A DNA stretch of 43,153 bases from an uncultured Christensenellaceae bacterium (lineage in GTDB: Bacteria > Bacillota > Clostridia > Christensenellales > CALWSW01), in contig CALWSW010000003.1 in NCBI GenBank assembly GCA_944384305.1, positions 1 to 43,153 on the forward strand, written 5' to 3'. Below the pieces are notes generated by a model. The model made no database searches. It saw only the letters and a program-made list of their open reading frames with translations, and was not told the DNA's origin. The stretch's first letter is position 1. Each line of letters opens with the position of its first letter. The position numbers were made by a program, and so were the translations under genes. Shown one piece after another: positions 7,555 through 42,832 of the stretch.

Positions 7555-8913
7555 ATGGCGAAGTCTGCATCCTATTACTGCACGGCCTGCGGGTACGAGA
7601 CCGGCAAGTGGCTGGGGCGCTGCCCCTCCTGCGGGGCGTGGAACACCGTTGAAGAGCGCCCTGCCTTGGCTGCGCCCGCCGCCAAAGCAGGGCGGCACGC
7701 CGCGGCGCAGGCCGCGCCGGCGGCCGCCCTGCCGCTCGATCAGATCCGCCCCGACGGCGCGGCCCGCCTGAAGACCGGCCTGGGGGAACTGGACCGCGTG
7801 CTGGGCGGCGGACTGGTAAAGGGCAGCGTGGTGCTGCTGGGCGGCGACCCGGGCATTGGCAAGTCGACGCTTTTGCTGCAGGTGTGCGACGCCCTGGGCG
7901 CGCACGGGCCGGTGCTTTACGCCACGGGCGAAGAGAGCGCCGCGCAGATCCGCCTGCGCGCCCAGCGGCTGGGGATCCAGGGGCGGGGCCTGTTCGTTGC
8001 GGCCGAGACCGACCTGGGGGCCATTTTGGCCGCCGCGCAGGAAAAGGGCTGCCACACGCTCATCGTCGACTCCATTCAAACCGTGTACCGGCCGGAACTG
8101 CCCAATTCCGCCGGTTCGGTAACGCAGATCCGCGAGGCGACCTCGCTTTTGACCCGCGCGGCCAAGCAGACCGGCATGACTGTGGTGATCGTGGGGCACG
8201 TGACCAAAGAGGGTGCGCTGGCCGGGCCGCGGCTGCTGGAGCATTTGGTGGACGCCGTGTTGTATTTTGAAGGCGACCGGTTCGACAGCTTCCGCATCCT
8301 GCGGGCGGTGAAGAACCGCTTTGGCTCCACCAACGAGATCGGGCTGTTCACCATGGGCGAGCGCGGCATGGAGGAAAGCCCCGACCCCAGCGCGCTCTTT
8401 TTGCCCGAGCGCGAGCAGGAGGTGCCGGGGTGCGCGGTGTTTTGTACCATAGAGGGCAGCCGCCCGGTGCTGGCCGAGCTGCAGGCCCTGGCCGCCAAGA
8501 CGGTGTTTGGCAACCCCCGCCGGGCCACCACCGGCCTGGACTACAACCGCCTGACCATGCTCATTGCCGTGCTGGAGCGCAAGCTGGGGGTGAGCTTGGG
8601 GGACCAGGACGTGTACGTGAACATTGCCGGCGGCCTGCGCGTGGAAGAGCGCGCGGCCGATCTGGCCTGTGTGGCGGCGCTGTATTCCTCGGTAAAAAAT
8701 CTGCCCATGCCCAAAAAGACCGCGCTGTTCGGCGAGATCGGCCTGACGGGCGAAGTGCGCGCCGTAGCCGCCGCCGACAAGCGCGCCGCCGAGTGCGCCA
8801 AGCTGGGGTTTGAGCGCATCATTCTGCCCAAGGGCAACCGCGCCGGGATCAGCCTGCCCGTGGAGGTCGTGGGCGTGGCGACGGCGGCAGAGGCGCTGCG
8901 GGCGTTGTTTTAA
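7555..8913 (+). CDS. radA: DNA repair protein RadA/Sms
   Basis: CTACG..WLGRCPSCGAWNT Zn finger, GGDPGIGKSTL, KNRFG motif, Lon-like C-terminal GEIGLTGEVR. Confidence 0.97.
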   Translation: MAKSASYYCTACGYETGKWLGRCPSCGAWNTVEERPALAAPAAKAGRHAAAQAAPAAALPLDQIRPDGAARLKTGLGELDRVLGGGLVKGSVVLLGGDPGIGKSTLLLQVCDALGAHGPVLYATGEESAAQIRLRAQRLGIQGRGLFVAAETDLGAILAAAQEKGCHTLIVDSIQTVYRPELPNSAGSVTQIREATSLLTRAAKQTGMTVVIVGHVTKEGALAGPRLLEHLVDAVLYFEGDRFDSFRILRAVKNRFGSTNEIGLFTMGERGMEESPDPSALFLPEREQEVPGCAVFCTIEGSRPVLAELQALAAKTVFGNPRRATTGLDYNRLTMLIAVLERKLGVSLGDQDVYVNIAGGLRVEERAADLACVAALYSSVKNLPMPKKTALFGEIGLTGEVRAVAAADKRAAECAKLGFERIILPKGNRAGISLPVEVVGVATAAEALRALF

Positions 8914-9395: not shown

Positions 9396-9908
9396 TTATT
9401 GGGGTTCCATCCTTTGCCTGATCGCTTTATAGATCTTCCGCTTAACGCGAGCTTGCTGAGTATCTTTCATTCGTTTCACAGCTCTTTTGAGCACAAAATG
9501 TCCTCTGACATATCCGCCCGGTGGACCGACATACATTCCTCCGGCAGGATCGCCACGATTGTATACAAAAGTATGTCCTGCCCAGTGTCCGGGTACGAAG
9601 TGACTTCGAAATCCATACTCAAGGTGCTTCGCGTAATCCAGGTTGTTATAGACGCGGATGAAGTAGCGGTTGCCGCTTTGCCTGGCTGTCTTATCCGACT
9701 TCCAGTTGCGCCGGTAGTCGCCGGTATTGACGATACCGGTCTTCCGGCGGCCGGGCTCGCTCAGATCGGTCGTGCAGATCTTGCGCGCCTGGCCAACGGC
9801 ATACATCCCCTCGCTCACAGCGATTTGGCCAATGATGTTGGGCGCGTCTTCTTGTAGCCGGGTCAATCTTTCGATATAATCCCGCAACTCCTTTGTGTTG
9901 ACCGCCAT
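9396..9908 (-). CDS. HK97 gp10-family neck/tail-completion protein
   Basis: MAVNTKEL...; VNTGDYRRNW, VYNNLDYAKHLEYG, GYVRGHFVLKRA motifs; ATG at 9908. Confidence 0.8.
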   Translation of the reverse strand: MAVNTKELRDYIERLTRLQEDAPNIIGQIAVSEGMYAVGQARKICTTDLSEPGRRKTGIVNTGDYRRNWKSDKTARQSGNRYFIRVYNNLDYAKHLEYGFRSHFVPGHWAGHTFVYNRGDPAGGMYVGPPGGYVRGHFVLKRAVKRMKDTQQARVKRKIYKAIRQRMEPQ

Positions 9909-9910
9909 AT

Positions 9911-10195
9911 TTATTCCTTTGTGGCCCGCGCCGCCGTCACGCCATCGAATGCGCCATTGGCGGCCAAACTCACCACCACGGCGTTGATGAACGCAAGCCC
10001 GGCCGTGGACCAGTTGAGTTCCCCCGCCACCGCCGCAGCGGCGATGAGCACAACGAGCGCCACAATGTAGCTGGTGATGCGGGTCGGGATCCGCTCGATC
10101 CACCCGATGCCCTTGATGAGCTGGGTGATGAGGGTGACGGCCAGCGTGGCGCCGGCGTAGGTGCCCAGGGCGCTCCAGGTGAAGAATTCTTCCAT
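9911..10195 (-). CDS. Holin-like membrane protein
   Basis: 94 aa, about 3 hydrophobic helices, ends LAANGAFD; in lysis module. Confidence 0.75.
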   Translation of the reverse strand: MEEFFTWSALGTYAGATLAVTLITQLIKGIGWIERIPTRITSYIVALVVLIAAAAVAGELNWSTAGLAFINAVVVSLAANGAFDGVTAARATKE

Positions 10196-10210
10196 ATTCG
10201 TTCTCCTTCC

Positions 10211-10525
10211 TTATTTAATCAAATGATCGGCGGCTTGTTCGTTCAAAAAATGATAGTACGCCTCTTTGGCGGTCTCGTAGTCTGCAACAGCCTCTTCCAC
10301 CTCACCATTGGGCTTGCCGCGCTTGATGGCCATAGCGCAGGCGTAGGAGAGCTTGGCGGCGGCCATGGTGACCTCTAAATTGAGGAGCGATTCCTGCTTG
10401 CGCGCGGCGGCGTGGGCCTCGCTGGCCCGGTCGCGCCGCTTTTGCGCCCTTTGGAGATAATACGCTGCGCACGATGCGATGACGCTGGGCAGCAGCCCTA
10501 GCAGAAATGCTGTTACTTCACTCAT
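10211..10525 (-). CDS. Lysis-module membrane protein (holin/antiholin-like)
   Basis: N-terminal TM helix then charged helical domain; between endolysin and holin. Confidence 0.6.
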   Translation of the reverse strand: MSEVTAFLLGLLPSVIASCAAYYLQRAQKRRDRASEAHAAARKQESLLNLEVTMAAAKLSYACAMAIKRGKPNGEVEEAVADYETAKEAYYHFLNEQAADHLIK

Positions 10526-10537
10526 CCCACCACCCCC

Positions 10538-12274
10538 TCAGTACTTCCAGCGGGCCTTCGTGCCCCGCACATCCACATGGACGATATAGCGTGCGCCGTA
10601 GCCCACGCCGCCGGAAACGTTCATTTTAAGGGCGATCTCTTCCAGGTGATCTCGGATTTCGGCGTCGGATACTCCGTCGCATTTGCCGAAGATATCCGCC
10701 GCGCGGCCGAATTTGTGCTGGGAGCCTGATGCCCCGCCCCGCTCTTTGTTCCACTGCTCGCAACGCTGGCCGCCGGCGATGGCGCCATCGCGCGTTGGTT
10801 CCGCACGGCAGGTCACGTACAGCCTCAGCCCAGGGTACTTCTTTTCTGCCTCCCGCCAGATGCGTTCGACCAGGAGGCGCACACCGGCGGTGCTGGCGTT
10901 GGGGTACCCGTCGCAGTACTTGTTGCACTGGCACTCCATGTCGGCCTCAGTCAAGCGCGGGGTGATGATCCCGCTTTTTAAGGCCGCCCAGGTCTTGGGC
11001 CCGGCAATGCCGTCCGCTGCAAGACCCATGGCCGCCTGGAACTGCTTCACCGCCTCTTTGGTCTTGGGGCCGTTCTTGCCGTCGATCTCCCCAACGATCG
11101 CCCCGAAGCCCCAGTCGGTCAGCGCCTGCTGCACGCCCTCGATGGTCTCCGGCCAATCGGTAGGGATGTCGGGGTCTGCAGGCTGCTCAGGCCCGTCGGG
11201 TGGCTCGGTGAGGTAGCTCGCCTTGATCCAGCCGCAGGTGCCGGTGCCGACCAGTGCCCGTTCGCCCTGGCGTTGCAATACCGTCACGATATCGCCATTA
11301 TAGAGGTAGCCGACCTTATCGCTCTTGGTATCAGCTTTGGCTCGTACGATGAGCGCATTACCCTCAGAGACGCCGGAGATCATCTTCTTTTCCTGCACTG
11401 GGTCCTCCTTCCCGTCATTCTTGTCGTTGCCGCCGTCATCCTCCCCAAAGTCATCCGGCAGCTCGACCCGTGGGATGAGGTGCAGCCCGGAGGGGCACTT
11501 GACCTCGGCAGGGGTGGCGTGGTCCATCAGGTAGGCGTAAGCATCGGCCTCGCTGATCTCCGGCCAGCGGGAGAGGATGAGGGCCATCATGCCGGCCACG
11601 GCCGGGGAGGCCATGCTGGTGCCGCTGAGCACGCGGTAGCCGCTCCCGGCGTTTTTGCAGCTGATTACACTGCTGCCGATGACGCAGCAGTCGGTGAGCG
11701 CTCCCCAGCAGGAAGAACTGTCGTTCATTTTCGAATTGCTTTTTAAATTTGCCACCACGATGGGGCTTTCATAGTCCGCCAGGGGCGATTTTTCGTCGGA
11801 ATCATTGCAGGCAGCCACTATAACCGGCACATTGCTGGCTACGAGATCATCTATCTCTGTCATAATGACCGGCCTGTCCGTTTCGCTGAGCGAGATATTG
11901 ACGACCAACCGCTTCTCGGGATGCTCGCTATGCCACGCTTTGATCTGCTGCAGCGCCTGGACAACGCTGCTGTTGCTCCCCGCGTTGGCAGCCCCATCCG
12001 TGACTTTGAGCGGCAATATTTCCGCGTCTGGTGCGATGCCGTACACTGCACCAGCAGCGATGCCCGCCACGTGCGTGCCGTGCCCGTAGGGGTTCACATC
12101 ATTGGTCGGCGTATTCCCGCGGATCGCCCAGCCATCTGTGCGCACGGACAAGTCCTCGTGCGGCCACACCCCTGTGTCGATCACCGCGATCACGACGCCC
12201 TTCCCCGTCACCCCGTGCTGGTGCCACTTTTCCGCCCCCGTAAACTCCCGGGGGATATTTCCACTCAGTGCCAT
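10538..12274 (-). CDS. S8 subtilase + SH3b + peptidoglycan-binding + peptidase M15A endolysin fusion
   Basis: S8 triad VIDTG / HGTHVAG / SGTSMASP; LIVRAKA..KVGYL..GD.V..GWIKASYL (SH3); VQQAL..G..DGKNGPKTKEAVKQFQ..GLAADGIAGPKTW (PG-binding); SQHKFGRAADI..HVDVR (M15 Zn ligands). Confidence 0.9.
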   Translation of the reverse strand: MALSGNIPREFTGAEKWHQHGVTGKGVVIAVIDTGVWPHEDLSVRTDGWAIRGNTPTNDVNPYGHGTHVAGIAAGAVYGIAPDAEILPLKVTDGAANAGSNSSVVQALQQIKAWHSEHPEKRLVVNISLSETDRPVIMTEIDDLVASNVPVIVAACNDSDEKSPLADYESPIVVANLKSNSKMNDSSSCWGALTDCCVIGSSVISCKNAGSGYRVLSGTSMASPAVAGMMALILSRWPEISEADAYAYLMDHATPAEVKCPSGLHLIPRVELPDDFGEDDGGNDKNDGKEDPVQEKKMISGVSEGNALIVRAKADTKSDKVGYLYNGDIVTVLQRQGERALVGTGTCGWIKASYLTEPPDGPEQPADPDIPTDWPETIEGVQQALTDWGFGAIVGEIDGKNGPKTKEAVKQFQAAMGLAADGIAGPKTWAALKSGIITPRLTEADMECQCNKYCDGYPNASTAGVRLLVERIWREAEKKYPGLRLYVTCRAEPTRDGAIAGGQRCEQWNKERGGASGSQHKFGRAADIFGKCDGVSDAEIRDHLEEIALKMNVSGGVGYGARYIVHVDVRGTKARWKY

Positions 12275-13534: not shown

Positions 13535-13838
13535 ATGCGACGATCACCCCCTTGTAAAAATCCGGTGTGAAGAAAACATTGGGGTCATGTGCCCGATCCG
13601 GTGCTGCACGCTTGACGATCTCGTTGAGCGCAACCTGCCGCTCGGCAAACGCCTGCTGGTACTCGTCTCTGAGCTTGTTGTACACGGGGTCGATGGCAGC
13701 CGGTTCCACGAGACGGGACAGATTCGTGATCAGTACGCGCAAGCCGTCCGTTTCAAAACTGAGTTTTTCCAGGTAGGACATTTGGCTTTCGCCCACCTCG
13801 TATTCGGCTATTTTCTTTCTAAAGCGGTCACAGCTCAT
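13524..13838 (-). CDS. Small accessory protein of CXXX-repeat modification system (putative)
   Basis: 104 aa from ATG 13838, overlaps both neighbours by 11 nt; helical with C-terminal FFTPDFYKGVI. Size and position resemble the small partner of CXXX rSAM clusters. Confidence 0.6.
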   Translation of the reverse strand: MSCDRFRKKIAEYEVGESQMSYLEKLSFETDGLRVLITNLSRLVEPAAIDPVYNKLRDEYQQAFAERQVALNEIVKRAAPDRAHDPNVFFTPDFYKGVIVAYEK

Positions 13839-14385
13839 TGATGATGCGGTCCCCCAAATCCACGATGGTGCTATCCAGCGACTTGACGTAATCTGCGATT
13901 TCTTCGATTTCACTGAGATGGTTGGCTAACGCGTCGTTGGCCTTGCTCGCCAAAAGCAGGGTAAGGTAGGTCCGCCCTGCAATGTACCGTAAGATCGGGC
14001 TGCCTTCGTCCGTCGCGTAATACGTATAAAAGTTCGTGTCGTAGTTTTCCTTCGCGTAAAAATCCTGCAGCTTGCGCTGCGCCATCAGGGAAATAAATCC
14101 GTCAAACTCCGTCTGGTCGAATCTGCTGGCTACGGTCCCGAACATTGTGGTAAACACCGTTTTGAAGTCTGCCGTGAAGTTGCCGGCGATGTTTTTGAGC
14201 GCATTGTACGTGGCAAAGCCAAGGGCAAACACTTCGTGCTCGTCCCGTGCTGCGGCAAAACTTTCGATGGCGGACCGCAGCGGCTCGACAATGGCTTCCC
14301 ACCCTGGTCCTTCCGTGAGGCTCACAAGAAAATCGGCCAGGTGAAACACCTGGTCCGGCATCGAATTGATGAAGATATCGAACAT
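13828..14385 (-). CDS. Hypothetical helical protein within rSAM cassette
   Basis: 185 aa, AGGAGG SD, tightly packed between target and accessory gene. Confidence 0.75.
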   Translation of the reverse strand: MFDIFINSMPDQVFHLADFLVSLTEGPGWEAIVEPLRSAIESFAAARDEHEVFALGFATYNALKNIAGNFTADFKTVFTTMFGTVASRFDQTEFDGFISLMAQRKLQDFYAKENYDTNFYTYYATDEGSPILRYIAGRTYLTLLLASKANDALANHLSEIEEIADYVKSLDSTIVDLGDRIINEL

Positions 14386-14397
14386 GGCACCCTCCTA

Positions 14398-15015
14398 TCA
14401 AGTATCGCGATTGACACCAGAGCACGTGTAGCCGCACGCCAAGGAACAGGCTGTTTGACAGCTGCCTTCGCACGTACCGGTACAGCTGCGGCATCCTTGG
14501 CAGCCGTTCCGGCAAGAGTAGTCACAGGTTCCGGTGCAATCGTATTGGCAGGTGTTTCCGCACCCGCTGCAGCCATAACACCCCGTGGAACACGTGCCAG
14601 AGCACCCTTGGCAGCCGCCGGTACACGTGCCCGTGCAGGATGTGTCGCAGCTGGTGCTGCAAGTTGCGTAACAAGCGCCGGCGCAGTTGCCGTTGCAGTC
14701 GGTCGCAGTTTTGTTGTATAAATTCGTCCTCGCCGATAGTATGGTAACAAACGCCGTCATTTCGTCCAGATCTGTTTTGGAGACCGGGCGCGGCATGCCG
14801 GCATCGGGCACCTGCTCGCTGTTGGCGGCCTGCAGTGGGACTGCGTTCTTAGTATAATGCTCCTCATAGACCGGCTGGCCTTCCGCTGGTGTGTGAGCAT
14901 AATCGTAATCTGTGCCGCCATAAGTCGCCAGCGAATCCTGGTACTGCCGCCGCAGCATTTCCGCTTTTACCGCTGCTTTGAGGTTGATAAAATCATCTGG
15001 ATCGATCCTGGGCAA
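14398..15015 (-). CDS. Cys-rich CXXX-repeat protein (putative rSAM modification target)
   Basis: TTG start with GGAGGTG SD; 106 Cys-free residues then 25 Cys in CX3/CX2 spacing (residues 107-198). Confidence 0.88.
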   Translation of the reverse strand: MPRIDPDDFINLKAAVKAEMLRRQYQDSLATYGGTDYDYAHTPAEGQPVYEEHYTKNAVPLQAANSEQVPDAGMPRPVSKTDLDEMTAFVTILSARTNLYNKTATDCNGNCAGACYATCSTSCDTSCTGTCTGGCQGCSGTCSTGCYGCSGCGNTCQYDCTGTCDYSCRNGCQGCRSCTGTCEGSCQTACSLACGYTCSGVNRDT

Positions 15016-15027
15016 AGTTTCACCTCC

Positions 15028-15336
15028 TCACACCAGCACCAGCCGCCCGGCAAACGCTGCGCCGGCGGTCAGGGTCACGTCTCCTGCAGCGTTGATCTCT
15101 GCGGCCCAGTACACATCGGTGTAGGCGCCCCAGGATGTCGTATAGCTGTTGCTCTCAGTTTTTTGGTACACCGCCAGCACAAACGGCGGGGTCTTGCCGT
15201 GCGTCGCGGCAGGGACGCTCATCGTCACGCCGCTGGCCGATGAAGACCAATTGCTCGTTTCAAAATCCAGCGCATATGCTTTCAATGCCGGGTTGGGGGA
15301 CAGCGTGCTGTTGCCGCCCAGTAAAATGCCACTCAT
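15028..15336 (-). CDS. Small beta-rich tail-fibre-associated protein
   Basis: 102 aa; TGATG-coupled to upstream gene; in distal tail module. Confidence 0.65.
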   Translation of the reverse strand: MSGILLGGNSTLSPNPALKAYALDFETSNWSSSASGVTMSVPAATHGKTPPFVLAVYQKTESNSYTTSWGAYTDVYWAAEINAAGDVTLTAGAAFAGRLVLV

Positions 15337-33561: not shown

Positions 33562-34833
33562 TCACTTCAATATCGAAATGGACGGGCCGCGCCGCAGCCG
33601 CTCTACGCTGTAGCGCAGCGCGGCCATGGCGTCGTCCATGAACTCGACAGGCTCATCTATGTAGAGTCCCGTTGCTGGGTCTTTTTTCCACTTCCACTGC
33701 TGCGCTTCCTTGATCGTGTTCACGCAGGAGGGGTGAATGTGGATCTTCCGCCCCTTCAAAAAGTCGATCTGCGCCTTCACGCTGCCCGGATCCTTTTTTA
33801 CTGCGCGGGCACGGAAGCCAGCCTTCTGCCAGGTCTTGATCCGGTCTGGTTCCGCCGAATCGCACCACATTTCAGTCTTTGGGTCAATGCCTGCGCTTTT
33901 TGCCATGCCGATGATCTCGCCGGTGTCCTTCTCAAAGCAGTACACTTCCGATGTGATGTACAGTTCTCCATCCTTCCATCCAACGCCCAGGATGGCGTTC
34001 GCGTGGTTGTATCCGAAGTCCTGGCCATAATAAAAGGCATCGAAGCAGTTCCGTGCGGTCGGGAAGTCGTGGATCTCGTAGTTCGTCAGAATCAGGCCGC
34101 CCAGCTCTCCCCATTCGCCCAGGCCATAAATTCGATAACCTTCCGGATCTTCGATTTTGCGGCGCTCCATGCGCCTGTAATAAGCAGGATCGATAAACCG
34201 ATTATCGCGATATGTGGAATGATGCGTCAGCACGTCCGGGTCTGTGCGGTCAAAATACCGGGCCTTGATCCAATGCATCGAACTGACCGGATTGAAGGTC
34301 ATCGTAATCTGGTAGTACAGGTTGGGGTTGATGCCTGCAAGATCGCCACGCAGGCGGTCGTCGAGAATGTCTGCGTCCTCTGGCAGCAGCTCGGTCGCTT
34401 CTTCGCACCAGATCCACACCAGTTTGCCATTTTTGAATGTGATGGACTTTACTTTCTCGCGCTGGCGCTGGTCCTTCACGCCCCGGAAGATGACCCGGTT
34501 CCCAGTGATTCGGCATTCCAGCGCCAGTGGGTTCAGATTGACTTTCCACGCCCGCTCGGCAAAAGGTCCAAACATGCGATAGATCGCCGCCTGCAGCTCC
34601 GCGAACGTGCTGTCCCGGTTGGTCTCCTCGATCTTGCGGACAACCAGCAGGTTCGCGCCGGCATAAGAAGGGTCGGACAGTTTGGCAATGTAGTCCTGCG
34701 CGATGTTGACGGACTTCCCACTGCCCGCAGAGCCTTTTAGGATGCGGTATCTGCCGCGCCACTCATTGACAGGGCGAAAGACGGGATTGAACCGCGCCGC
34801 CGTGTTGATTTTAACTTTCGTCTCCGTAATCAT
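33562..34833 (-). CDS. terL: Terminase large subunit (PBSX family)
   Basis: KGSAGSGKS Walker A, WCEEATE Walker B, TFNP, YGLGEWG, GQDFG, CDSAEP, DDAMAALRY. Confidence 0.96.
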   Translation of the reverse strand: MITETKVKINTAARFNPVFRPVNEWRGRYRILKGSAGSGKSVNIAQDYIAKLSDPSYAGANLLVVRKIEETNRDSTFAELQAAIYRMFGPFAERAWKVNLNPLALECRITGNRVIFRGVKDQRQREKVKSITFKNGKLVWIWCEEATELLPEDADILDDRLRGDLAGINPNLYYQITMTFNPVSSMHWIKARYFDRTDPDVLTHHSTYRDNRFIDPAYYRRMERRKIEDPEGYRIYGLGEWGELGGLILTNYEIHDFPTARNCFDAFYYGQDFGYNHANAILGVGWKDGELYITSEVYCFEKDTGEIIGMAKSAGIDPKTEMWCDSAEPDRIKTWQKAGFRARAVKKDPGSVKAQIDFLKGRKIHIHPSCVNTIKEAQQWKWKKDPATGLYIDEPVEFMDDAMAALRYSVERLRRGPSISILK

Positions 34834-40409: not shown

Positions 40410-40518
40410 GTATATTTAAAATCTACAACACAAGCATACCATTTAGTGTATTTAAAGTCAACACTTTTTGATTATTTCTCCAACTTTAGTTGATTTTCAA
40501 TTTACGCTATGTTATATT
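40410..40518. promoter_or_regulatory. Genetic switch: divergent promoters and three operator copies
   Basis: Minus: TTGACT(40461-40456)-17-TATGCT with TGn. Plus: TTGATT(40490-40495)-17-TATATT with TGn. Operator-like 17-mers at 40410, 40446, 40489. Confidence 0.72.
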
Positions 40519-40538
40519 TCAAAAAGGAGGAAGTTACA

Positions 40539-41174
40539 ATGTCCGAAATCAGTCAACGAATTCGATCCCGCCGAGAAGAGCTCGGTCTTTCACAGGAAGA
40601 ATTGGCAAAGAGAATGGGATATAAGTCTCGCTCTTCCATTAACAAAATAGAACTTGGTGAAAACGATATCCCTCAATCTAAAATTGAAGCTTTTGCCAAG
40701 GCTTTGAGCACAACTCCTGCTTATTTAATGGGGTGGATTAATGACCCATCTATAAGGAAAATCTCAGAAATCTTTCCTTATCACCCCACACACCGAATTC
40801 CCATTCTGGGCCGTATTTCAGCCGGTAAGCCGCTTTTTGCCGAAGAAAACATTGAAGGTTACACCTATACCGAGCTCAATAGCGGGGGCACCTATTACGC
40901 TCTACGTGTCGCCGGTGACAGCATGAACGCTGCCCGCATCAACGAGGGCGATCTACTCATCGTTCGACAGCAGGATGAAGTAGAAAATGGCCAAATTGCC
41001 ATCGTTATGGTAAATGGCAATGATGCCACTGTCAAAAAATACTACCGCAATGGAGATACAGTCACCTTACTGCCTCAAAGTCTCAATCCTGAGCACCAGA
41101 TGCAAGTTTATGACTTGCGAAAATCTCAGATAAAGATATTGGGATTAGTGGTTCAAAACGTAATTAAACTGTAA
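40539..41174 (+). CDS. CI/LexA-like repressor (HTH_3 + S24 peptidase)
   Basis: RIRSRREELGLSQEELAKRMG HTH; ISAG cleavage site, GDSM and ATVKK catalytic motifs; ATG 40539 after AAGGAGG. Confidence 0.95.
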   Translation: MSEISQRIRSRREELGLSQEELAKRMGYKSRSSINKIELGENDIPQSKIEAFAKALSTTPAYLMGWINDPSIRKISEIFPYHPTHRIPILGRISAGKPLFAEENIEGYTYTELNSGGTYYALRVAGDSMNAARINEGDLLIVRQQDEVENGQIAIVMVNGNDATVKKYYRNGDTVTLLPQSLNPEHQMQVYDLRKSQIKILGLVVQNVIKL

Positions 41175-41219: not shown

Positions 41220-41429
41220 ATGGGGTGGAAGATCGGAGGAGGGATCTGCAGCGTAATGACTGTAGCCGGAATTATTGTTGCAGCAACAACAGAACCGGAA
41301 TATGCGACTCCTGCCCAATGGGTCGTTGCCGCTTTGTTCGCAGCGCTTGCGGTATATTTTTTCTGGAAGGGCAGCAAAAAGAAGAAAGGTGTTTCCCATT
41401 CCAGTGAAACCCCGGAGCACACTTCATGA
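41220..41429 (+). CDS. Small two-TM membrane protein in immunity region
   Basis: GGAGGT SD; two hydrophobic segments, basic tail; ATGA overlap with next gene. Confidence 0.65.
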   Translation: MGWKIGGGICSVMTVAGIIVAATTEPEYATPAQWVVAALFAALAVYFFWKGSKKKKGVSHSSETPEHTS

Positions 41430-42832
41430 ACGCCCAGGATGTTTCTGCCGGATTAAATCGGAAGTCTGGCGGTGGAATCGGAAATCTTTTTAAGTCGCGC
41501 GAAAACCAGCAGCTAAAACATCAAATTGCCGCTCTCGAGGCACAATTGACGCCCGAAATGCGGGATACTTTGACGGCGCAAAAGCGGCTTGCCGAAGCCA
41601 AGCAGGAAGTGTCTCTTTGTGAATCGAAACTGGCTGGTCTCAAATCTGATCTGACGGCCCTGCAAAACGAAATCAGCGCTGCAAAGAAAAACCTTGTGGA
41701 AACGAATGACGCCATACTGATGCAGGAGTTTGGCCTGTACGAGCCCAAATATTCTTTTGCCAATTCTGACTTATATAAAAACGCTCTGCAAGAGGTGCGC
41801 GCAAAGCAGAAGGAAATGATTCGAAGCAAGACTGCCGCGACTGGTTCCACTACCTGGAGAGTCAACAACAACCTTGCCAAAGGCCGGAAAATGGTTGCCG
41901 ACATGCAGAAATTGCTTGTTCGCGCCTTTAATACCGAATGCGACGAAATCATCGATAAGATCAAGTTCAACAATGTTGATTCAGGAATTCAAAGAATCAA
42001 TGCGTCTCGCGATGCTATTTCCAAACTGGGAAGCATGATGGACGTTTCCATCACTCCGGGCTATTTGCAGCTCAAGCTTGATGAACTTCATCTTGCCTAT
42101 GAATATCAGCAAAAGAAGCAGGAAGAGAAGGAGGAACAGCGCAGGTTACGTGAAGAACTCCGTGAACAGGCAAAGCTCAAAAAAGAAATTGAAGAAGCCC
42201 GGCAGAAAATCGCCAAAGACAAGCAGCATTATGAAATTGCCCTAAAGCAGGCGCGAGAGCGTCTTAATGCCGAGAAAGATGATGTGAAGAGGGCAGACCT
42301 TGAAGATAAAATGGCATTGTTCCAAGAGCAGCTGGAAAAGCTTGGAAAAGAACTTGAAGAAGTTGACTATAGAGAAGCAAACCAAAAAGCGGGCTATGTG
42401 TATGTGATATCCAACATAGGGGCTTTTGGAGAAAACGTGTATAAAATTGGAATGACCCGACGGCTGGAACCCATGGACCGCATCGACGAGCTCGGGGATG
42501 CTTCGGTTCCTTTTAAATTTGATGTTCACGCTATGATTTTTGCTGAGGATGCACCCAAACTGGAAGCCGCGCTTCACCATGCTTTTGAGGCCCAGAGGCT
42601 CAATATGGTAAACAACCGGCGAGAATTCTTCCGGGTGCCCTTGGATGAGATTAAGCGAGTTGTGCGAGAAAATTTTGATAACACTGTAGAATTTGTGGAC
42701 ATTCCGGACGCAGAACAATACCGGCAGTCGTTGCTGTTAAAAAAGCAAGAGGCATCCTCCGGTGCTTGCCGCGCTCACGATTTCGTGAACACAGAGGCCC
42801 AAATTGGATGGAAAAAGGAGCTTGGTTTATGA
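41426..42832 (+). CDS. DUF4041 + T5orf172/MUG113 (GIY-YIG-like) domain protein
   Basis: QEFGLYEP, RAFNTECD, coiled coil, AGYVYVISNIGAFG..YKIGMTRRLEP.DRI.ELGDASVPF.FDVH, RREFF. Confidence 0.88.
   Translation: MNAQDVSAGLNRKSGGGIGNLFKSRENQQLKHQIAALEAQLTPEMRDTLTAQKRLAEAKQEVSLCESKLAGLKSDLTALQNEISAAKKNLVETNDAILMQEFGLYEPKYSFANSDLYKNALQEVRAKQKEMIRSKTAATGSTTWRVNNNLAKGRKMVADMQKLLVRAFNTECDEIIDKIKFNNVDSGIQRINASRDAISKLGSMMDVSITPGYLQLKLDELHLAYEYQQKKQEEKEEQRRLREELREQAKLKKEIEEARQKIAKDKQHYEIALKQARERLNAEKDDVKRADLEDKMALFQEQLEKLGKELEEVDYREANQKAGYVYVISNIGAFGENVYKIGMTRRLEPMDRIDELGDASVPFKFDVHAMIFAEDAPKLEAALHHAFEAQRLNMVNNRREFFRVPLDEIKRVVRENFDNTVEFVDIPDAEQYRQSLLLKKQEASSGACRAHDFVNTEAQIGWKKELGL

Follow-up and report, generated by a model that had tools for sequence, protein, structure and literature searches.

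The window analysed here is a stretch of 43,153 nucleotides (nt) from an uncultured Christensenellaceae bacterium (GenBank assembly GCA_944384305.1, contig CALWSW010000003.1, positions 1 to 43,153, forward strand). It carries part of a bacterial chromosome followed by a prophage, and in this prophage we were particularly interested in a 205-aa protein in which a Cys-free N-terminal domain is followed by a long ladder of regularly spaced Cys (hereafter, the target). The target gene lies between tail genes and lysis genes and is accompanied by genes for a radical S-adenosylmethionine (radical SAM)/SPASM enzyme and for a helper protein. Target, helper and enzyme make up a small kit (Table 1).

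The Cys ladder and its N-terminal domain

The open reading frame (ORF) of the target starts with TTG, and a GGAGG was found a few bases 5′ of this codon. The original prediction, made from the sequence of the window, had described a Cys-free part of 106 residues, an array of 25 Cys with mostly CX3 and a few CX2 steps, small spacers (G/T/S) and recurring CTGTC and GCQGC units. Counting of residues and motifs bore out this description. Residues 1-106 contain no Cys and residues 107-198 contain 25; successive Cys are 4 residues apart at 19 of the 24 steps and 3 residues apart at the other 5. The most frequent non-Cys residues in 107-205 are Gly (18), Thr (16) and Ser (11), CTGTC is present at residues 127, 160 and 178, and GCQGC at residues 134 and 171. 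The acidic residues of the array are 4 Asp and 1 Glu, and it has no CC or CXC unit, the smallest Cys spacing being 3. When the 92-residue core was shuffled, 0 of 200,000 shuffles reproduced a spacing of 3 or 4 at every step, indicating that the Cys periodicity is far above chance.

The recurring units had also been taken to suggest internal duplication, a claim that was weakly backed. On one side, a 16-nt direct repeat (94% alike, 111 nt apart) underlies both GCQGC units, and joint recurrence of the two kinds of motif was rare in shuffled sequences; on the other side, Tandem Repeats Finder returned 0 rows. In free shuffles of the spacers (n = 20,000), an identical CX3C unit occurred at least three times in 231 cases, a GCX2C unit at least twice in 236, and both in 1. 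With the make-up of each spacer position kept (n = 20,000), the corresponding numbers were 412, 1,324 and 28.

The structure of the target alone was predicted by AlphaFold2 with an alignment of 28 rows. Residues 1-100 were modelled as confident helices (residues 6-22, 30-33, 51-68 and 80-95) with a pLDDT score (the predicted value of the local distance difference test) of 85-95, and the array scored below 50. A fold search with the N-domain model among 48,161 solved chains gave a Lon N-terminal fragment as the best match (Z 6.1) and TssK baseplate chains at Z 4.5; for a predicted model of this kind, such values fall within the noise stated for helical models. A viral structure library returned three uncharacterised homologues and nothing else.

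Searching with the whole protein yielded 59 homologues at E ≤ 1e-3 among 147 candidates. In the alignment of 28 relatives, the first ~100 residues were conserved, with an invariant Arg and a nearly invariant Glu, and conservation of the array was limited to the Cys and the first units. A profile search with residues 1-106 alone found 160 clusters at E ≤ 1e-3 (1.84 billion representatives searched). From the 150 listed matches that were inspected, 42 of less than 150 aa were excluded as probable fragments, leaving 108 of at least 150 aa. A run of at least 8 Cys spaced 3-5 was present in 98 of these 108, so that the N-domain is a family-defining partner of the array. The rest comprised three proteins with 19-20 Cys in a less regular order, one unrelated repeat protein and six without an array. 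Two of these six resemble an array read in another frame, and a further one of the six, P0166, has the first ~70 residues followed by another C-terminal part, with a match to phrog_38190 (function unknown, E 6.7e-21). Across 156 family members, the longest Cys run was 8-63 Cys (median 23), with 2,755 steps of 4 residues and 715 of 3, and Cys made up 27% of array residues. Judged from these sequences, the variable array length is more in keeping with a spacer or shaft than with a defined bioactive core.

The original prediction had further held that the N-terminal part goes beyond an ordinary leader of a ribosomally synthesised and post-translationally modified peptide (RiPP), and this view stood. 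A Pfam and NCBIfam scan of the target at E ≤ 0.01 matched 0 families, hence 0 leader families (NHLP, Nif11 and the like), and the 28 relatives at E ≤ 1 matched Cys-repeat target models and four unrelated models (one member each), again with 0 leader families. The sole PHROG match of the target was phrog_6085, of unknown function, with none to a named tail-fibre family. As modelled, the 205-aa protein has a folded helical domain in place of a short unstructured leader.

The radical SAM enzyme and the helper

The 414-aa enzyme passed the NCBIfam model TIGR04115 ("radical SAM peptide maturase, CXXX-repeat target family") (cut-off 350), scoring 398 bits over model positions 2-359, and the match was reproduced in a whole-genome scan. 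The match begins at residue 26, indicating that this enzyme has no N-terminal extension. The runner-up families, all under their cut-offs, were PapB (148 bits, cut-off 340), the SCIFF maturase (87 bits, cut-off 425) and a QhpD-type family (81 bits). The closest solved chain was 5wgg/5why (E 3.7e-15), and 5WHY is identified as CteB in PMC13692751.

Stand-alone homologues of the helper were found just upstream of the enzyme gene in 17 loci. The long enzymes carry, as an N-terminal extension, a homologue of this free helper (hhalign probability 94.7%, E 6.3e-8), and in the relative P0047 the target continues at its C-terminus into a helper (hhalign probability 97%, E 1.3e-10). Because the helper is fused to the enzyme in some cases and to the target in P0047, the three proteins are tied together. 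The helper matched no NCBIfam family and its longer reading of 129 aa no Pfam family, and it therefore cannot be called a RiPP recognition element. Modelling of the helper in complex with residues 1-106 (the N-domain) gave scores of 0.28 and 0.00 against a mark of 0.32, in a run without controls that gives no verdict either way.

The linkage of these genes was then counted across loci. Where the match included the N-domain, an enzyme gene lay within ~2.5 kb of the target in 31 of 35 loci, and the remaining 4 loci end 94-1,315 nt past the match. The genome scan used 10 closer alignment rows instead of 28, and three loci (L036-L038) in which the array alone was matched and no enzyme was present were excluded from the counts as unrelated Cys-rich proteins. 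Among viral loci of the P0220 type (n = 44), the enzyme gene was found ~0.5 kb downstream in 43, and the exception ends at the gene. The array-bearing family is genetically locked to the TIGR04115 enzyme and the ~100-aa helper. Two layouts were seen. The first, as in the window, has the order target, ~180-aa ORF, helper, enzyme; in the second, a long enzyme (494-558 aa) is encoded directly upstream of the target. The genome loci come from Oscillospiraceae and other Clostridia; among them is L030, a locus of Neglectibacter timonensis.

In the first layout, an ORF of similar size (175-198 aa) occupies the position of the 185-aa protein at other loci. The 185-aa protein gave no Pfam, NCBIfam or PHROG match and scored 0.78 or lower in the protein atlas, under the mark of 0.8; homology with the positional counterparts was not supported (hhalign probability 6%). 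An extra ORF (210-391 aa) stands between the target and a ~176-aa ORF in L027 (8815-9447), L029 (8939-9583) and L034 (5923-7098), with an N-terminal motif that we take to be reminiscent of nucleotidyltransferases. The target looks split in L021 (7989-8921) and L022 (7989-9082), where a first ORF holds the N-domain and 11 Cys and a second holds 39-53 Cys, which could be a real split or a frameshift. Tandem paralogues of the enzyme, 36-46% identical to that of the window, lie beside the Cys gene in L017 and L018 (4547-7916) and in L026 (9314-12126). A second radical SAM protein is encoded in the genome that contains the window, on another contig (G000:C76:1841-2887, L084), with 107 bits on TIGR04115, below cut-off. 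Radical SAM/SPASM proteins of SPN3US-group jumbo phages (Salmonella, Erwinia, Escherichia) are 23-25% identical to the window enzyme over ~88% of its length.

Table 1. Features of the window that bear on the target and its prophage.
Feature	Position (nt)	Strand	Basis or best match
Cys-ladder protein (target), 205 aa	14398..15015	-	ORF list, Cys counts, homologues
Cys-free predicted helical N-terminal domain, residues 1-106	14698..15015	-	AlphaFold2, N-domain search
Cys array, residues 107-198 (25 Cys; 19 CX3 and 5 CX2 steps)	14422..14697	-	Cys counts, shuffles
Radical SAM/SPASM maturase, 414 aa	12290..13534	-	TIGR04115; three genes downstream of target
Helper, ~104 aa	13524..13838	-	ATG at 13838 is the inferred start; final 11 nt overlap the enzyme start
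185-aa protein between target and helper	13828..14385	-	ORF list; no known family
102-aa protein directly upstream of target	15028..15336	-	phrog_10468 "virion structural protein", E 5.5e-8
Tail protein, 560 aa	15973..17655	-	phrog_5302 "tail protein", E 2.2e-34
Tail fibre protein, 302 aa	17652..18560	-	phrog_7037 "tail fiber protein", E 9.4e-25
Lysin-like protein: S8 subtilase, SH3, peptidoglycan-binding and M15 peptidase domains	10538..12274	-	Pfam, endolysin PHROGs
Large terminase	33562-34833		prophage
S24-type repressor	40509-41174		prophage

The target and its enzyme resemble the CXXX-repeat system of NCBIfam, in that the enzyme passes TIGR04115 and the target carries Cys mostly at every fourth residue. 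Among the 28 relatives at E ≤ 1, the target models of this system matched 18 (TIGR04117) and 16 (TIGR04114). The window target itself fails both, with 13.7 bits on TIGR04117 against a cut-off of 50 and no match to TIGR04114, and PF27846, which precomputed tables give for many relatives, is not listed for it. The names shown for these models include neither a tail-module setting nor a folded N-domain. Beyond database annotation, no experiment or paper on this system was found in the literature searched; the one paper that mentions TIGR04115 (PMC13488306) is, by its title, a pig-microbiome study.

PapB (freyrasin) and CteB (SCIFF), ranthipeptide maturases that form Cys thioethers, are the nearest characterised enzymes by hidden Markov model (HMM) score and solved structure. 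They act on short peptides that have few Cys, and the acceptor of PapB is Asp or Glu.

The closest tested analogue is the pair CrpA/CrpC of Methanococcus voltae, which is described in PMC13692751 (2026). According to this article, the SPASM enzyme CrpC acts on a Cys-rich protein rather than a short peptide, installing thioether (ranthionine-type) links on the 28.8-kDa CrpA; the Cys motifs of CrpA are C-terminal, the acceptor lies 3-4 residues after the Cys, and the N-terminal domain aids engagement. The two systems also differ: the recognition domain of CrpC is in cis, whereas the helper of the window kit is of another sequence type and acts in trans or is fused, and CrpA has 17-residue repeats with C-X-X-Q/D, whereas the target is a bare CX3 ladder. 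The window enzyme reaches 43.8 bits on the CrpC family TIGR04463 and does not pass its cut-off of 525. CrpA/CrpC are cellular and archaeal and the window kit is viral; the words "phage" and "CXXX" have 0 occurrences in PMC13692751. Since the nearest characterised families by HMM score (PapB, SCIFF maturase, QhpD-type) form thioethers, and since CrpC puts such links on a Cys-rich protein (PMC13692751), thioether chemistry was inferred for the window enzyme, which probably cross-links the ladder.

It is improbable that the ladder is instead a metal or iron-sulfur array, namely a metallothionein-like or cluster scaffold on which the enzyme makes no staples or which it uses as a cofactor-loaded partner. 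The Cys content of the family and its small spacers would suit such a function, and PMC13692751 discusses metal binding as one role that the modified CrpA might have. However, the absence of CC and CXC units, with a minimum spacing of 3, argues against it, the coupling to a peptide maturase and the fusion of the helper to either partner point to covalent modification, and the tail-module context would be left unexplained.

Tail genes, fibre-like relatives and lysis genes

Genes for a tail fibre, a tail protein and a virion structural protein lie just upstream of the target on the same strand, the last of them stopping 12 nt ahead of the target start. The fibre protein also matched the Pfam Phage_tail_fib N-terminal domain at E 7e-4, under its cut-off. 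Similar settings were found elsewhere. PHROG scans placed baseplate and tail-fibre genes upstream of the kit in L008, tail-fibre-like genes on both sides of it in L001 and L005, and a tail fibre upstream in L029. In L039, a 60-kb phage, the order is tape measure, Dit, minor tail, 797-aa structural protein, Cys protein, helper and enzyme. The kit recurs within tail-fibre modules of unrelated phages.

Several relatives carry large additional parts. In P0221, residues 42-297, placed between the N-domain motifs and the array, matched phrog_5499 "host range and adsorption protein" (E 2.5e-14) and phrog_1330 "tail protein" (E 7.8e-12), with a CBM_4_9 match (E 4.6e-4) below cut-off; no locus for P0221 was found in viral contigs. 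P0109 is extended by 180 aa at its N-terminus, inserts are present in P0187, P0192 and P0204, and in P0220 ~190 residues follow a very long array. Among eight phages of the P0220 group, the N-domains are 93-100% identical and the arrays 76-98%, and past a fixed junction the C-terminal domains fall into types that are only 14-19% identical to each other. AlphaFold2 gave a mean pLDDT of 32 for this C-terminal domain, which is unusable. Receptor-binding tail proteins are known to exchange their far end at a conserved junction, and by sequence comparison the C-terminal domain of the P0220 group appears to be swapped between phages in the manner of receptor-binding tips.

At 5 of 17 P0220-type loci (L049, L061, L064, L066 and L069; ~8036-8080), the frame stops 11-16 residues past the array, inside the conserved junction. 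In L049, L061, L064 and L066 the C-terminal part was still found by tblastn, pointing to frameshifts or else to a split at this swap point.

The likeness to phage tail fibres and receptor-binding proteins thus comprises the position in the tail module and, in relatives, a conserved N-part, a variable repetitive middle and an exchanged C-terminal domain. In contrast to these relatives (the P0220 group and the insert of P0221), the window protein lacks a distal binding domain with mosaic exchange, and it has no match to a named fibre family. Enzyme-made covalent staples in the shaft were not found described for any virion fibre in the literature searched. The target could be a late protein outside the virion that needs modification by the radical SAM enzyme, such as a fibre assembly factor or scaffold, or an intracellular anti-defence effector. 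Its place in a late operon and its single PHROG match outside the named fibre families would be compatible with such a role; the adsorption-type and swappable terminal domains of the relatives better fit an exposed, host-contacting part, and we regard this explanation as a long shot.

Lysis genes adjoin the kit, and the gene directly downstream of it encodes the lysin-like protein. By eye, the Asp/His/Ser subtilase motifs of its S8 domain appear intact; a protease-lysin fusion of this type is unusual. Given the leader-then-core layout and a dedicated radical SAM/SPASM enzyme of a peptide-maturase family, the target could be a RiPP-like precursor, in which a long folded leader guides the enzyme and is cut off, and a ~95-aa cross-linked Cys peptide is freed at lysis as a bacteriocin, signal or decoy. 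The helper stands at the position of the recognition domains of related maturases, the S8 subtilase could supply the cut (it has a weak QhpE-type protease match, NF049966, E 1.4e-9, far below cut-off), and the adjoining lysis genes would fit release of the peptide. However, the S8 domain is not a regular companion of the kit. In a tblastn synteny comparison of 38 loci, the lysin-like protein was matched in L002 alone and by the peptidoglycan-binding part alone, and the S8 protease was rejected as a conserved leader peptidase of the kit. Neither this analysis nor PHROG scans of flanking ORFs (six loci, not every ORF) found a gene for an exporter, a leader peptidase or immunity that accompanies the kit. 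The large adsorption-type inserts and appendages of the relatives make little sense for a discarded N-part or a defined bioactive core, and the wide range of array lengths and the lack of a leader-family match also speak against a precursor, which we consider unlikely but a serious alternative.

Other parts of the window were also annotated. Its left 9 kb is bacterial (Mur ligase, IspDF, RadA-like ATPase), after which the prophage begins. Two small ORFs of 94 and 104 aa between the lysin gene and the prophage end (9911-10525, - strand) are probably holins; the N-terminal half of the 94-aa product is hydrophobic, and L005 (13145-13432) encodes a counterpart that is 44% identical to it. Beyond the lysis genes, at the prophage end and beside the bacterial radA-like gene, an ORF resembles the HK97-gp10-like tail component (9396-9806, - strand, E 1.2e-6), an odd site for a tail gene. 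A protein with DUF4041 and T5orf172/MUG113 domains is encoded beside the prophage repressor (41426-42832, + strand).

A candidate stapled rod on the phage tail

One reading that we put forward is that, in phages of strictly anaerobic gut Clostridia, a part of a tail fibre or whisker is built as a Cys ladder that the phage-encoded radical SAM enzyme staples by dozens of thioethers into a redox-proof, protease-resistant rod, with the helical N-domain serving as enzyme handle and anchor. RiPP chemistry would then be put to structural use in a virus particle. We assign this reading a probability of about 0.4. The more general statement, that the 205-aa protein is tail-associated and its ladder stapled by thioether bonds rather than released as a free peptide, has in our judgement an even chance of being correct. 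In the proposed mechanism, the helper together with the enzyme would hold the substrate, and the enzyme would form thioethers in which the sulfur of each Cys is bonded to a carbon of a spacer residue close by. The product would be a chain of small rings forming a stiff rod that sits on the tail, and the N-domain would stay in the mature protein, as the handle for the enzyme and as an end for attachment or oligomerisation. Oscillospiraceae and other Clostridia are strict anaerobes. Because the hosts are strict anaerobes, it is plausible that thioether staples replace disulfides, which cannot work in the reducing gut.

The claim that the target is more of a structural protein than a leader peptide was upheld in part. 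The conserved helical N-domain, the position among tail genes and the adsorption-type or swappable domains of relatives support it; the evidence for a fibre is, on the other hand, borrowed from relatives, because the window protein ends 7 residues past the final Cys and has no head domain after the array. Several further points weigh against a stapled tail part. In the phage collection (50,697 records), no cultured phage carried the target, the single match being a faecal phage contig without annotation. Cargo genes, too, are commonly placed in the slot between tail fibres and lysis genes, and long folded leaders occur in other RiPP classes (NHLP and Nif11 types). The active-looking S8 protease domain encoded nearby could, judging by its motifs, cut the target. 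The rule established for PapB, that Cys is linked to Asp or Glu, cannot hold for most units here, because the array contains so few acidic residues. Finally, the low pLDDT of the array means that its fold cannot be stated.

Radical-SAM-modified phage tails were not found in the literature searched, a search that did not include the supplementary homologue list of PMC13692751. Enzyme-made thioethers are known mainly from small peptide natural products, and it was only in 2026, in PMC13692751, that they were demonstrated on a sizeable Cys-rich protein. If the proposal of a stapled tail rod is true, stapling of a tail appendage would represent a new means of constructing part of a virion, and a widespread uncharacterised radical SAM family would gain a biological purpose. 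It would also hint at a way in which gut phages maintain the stability of exposed fibres under conditions where disulfides fail.
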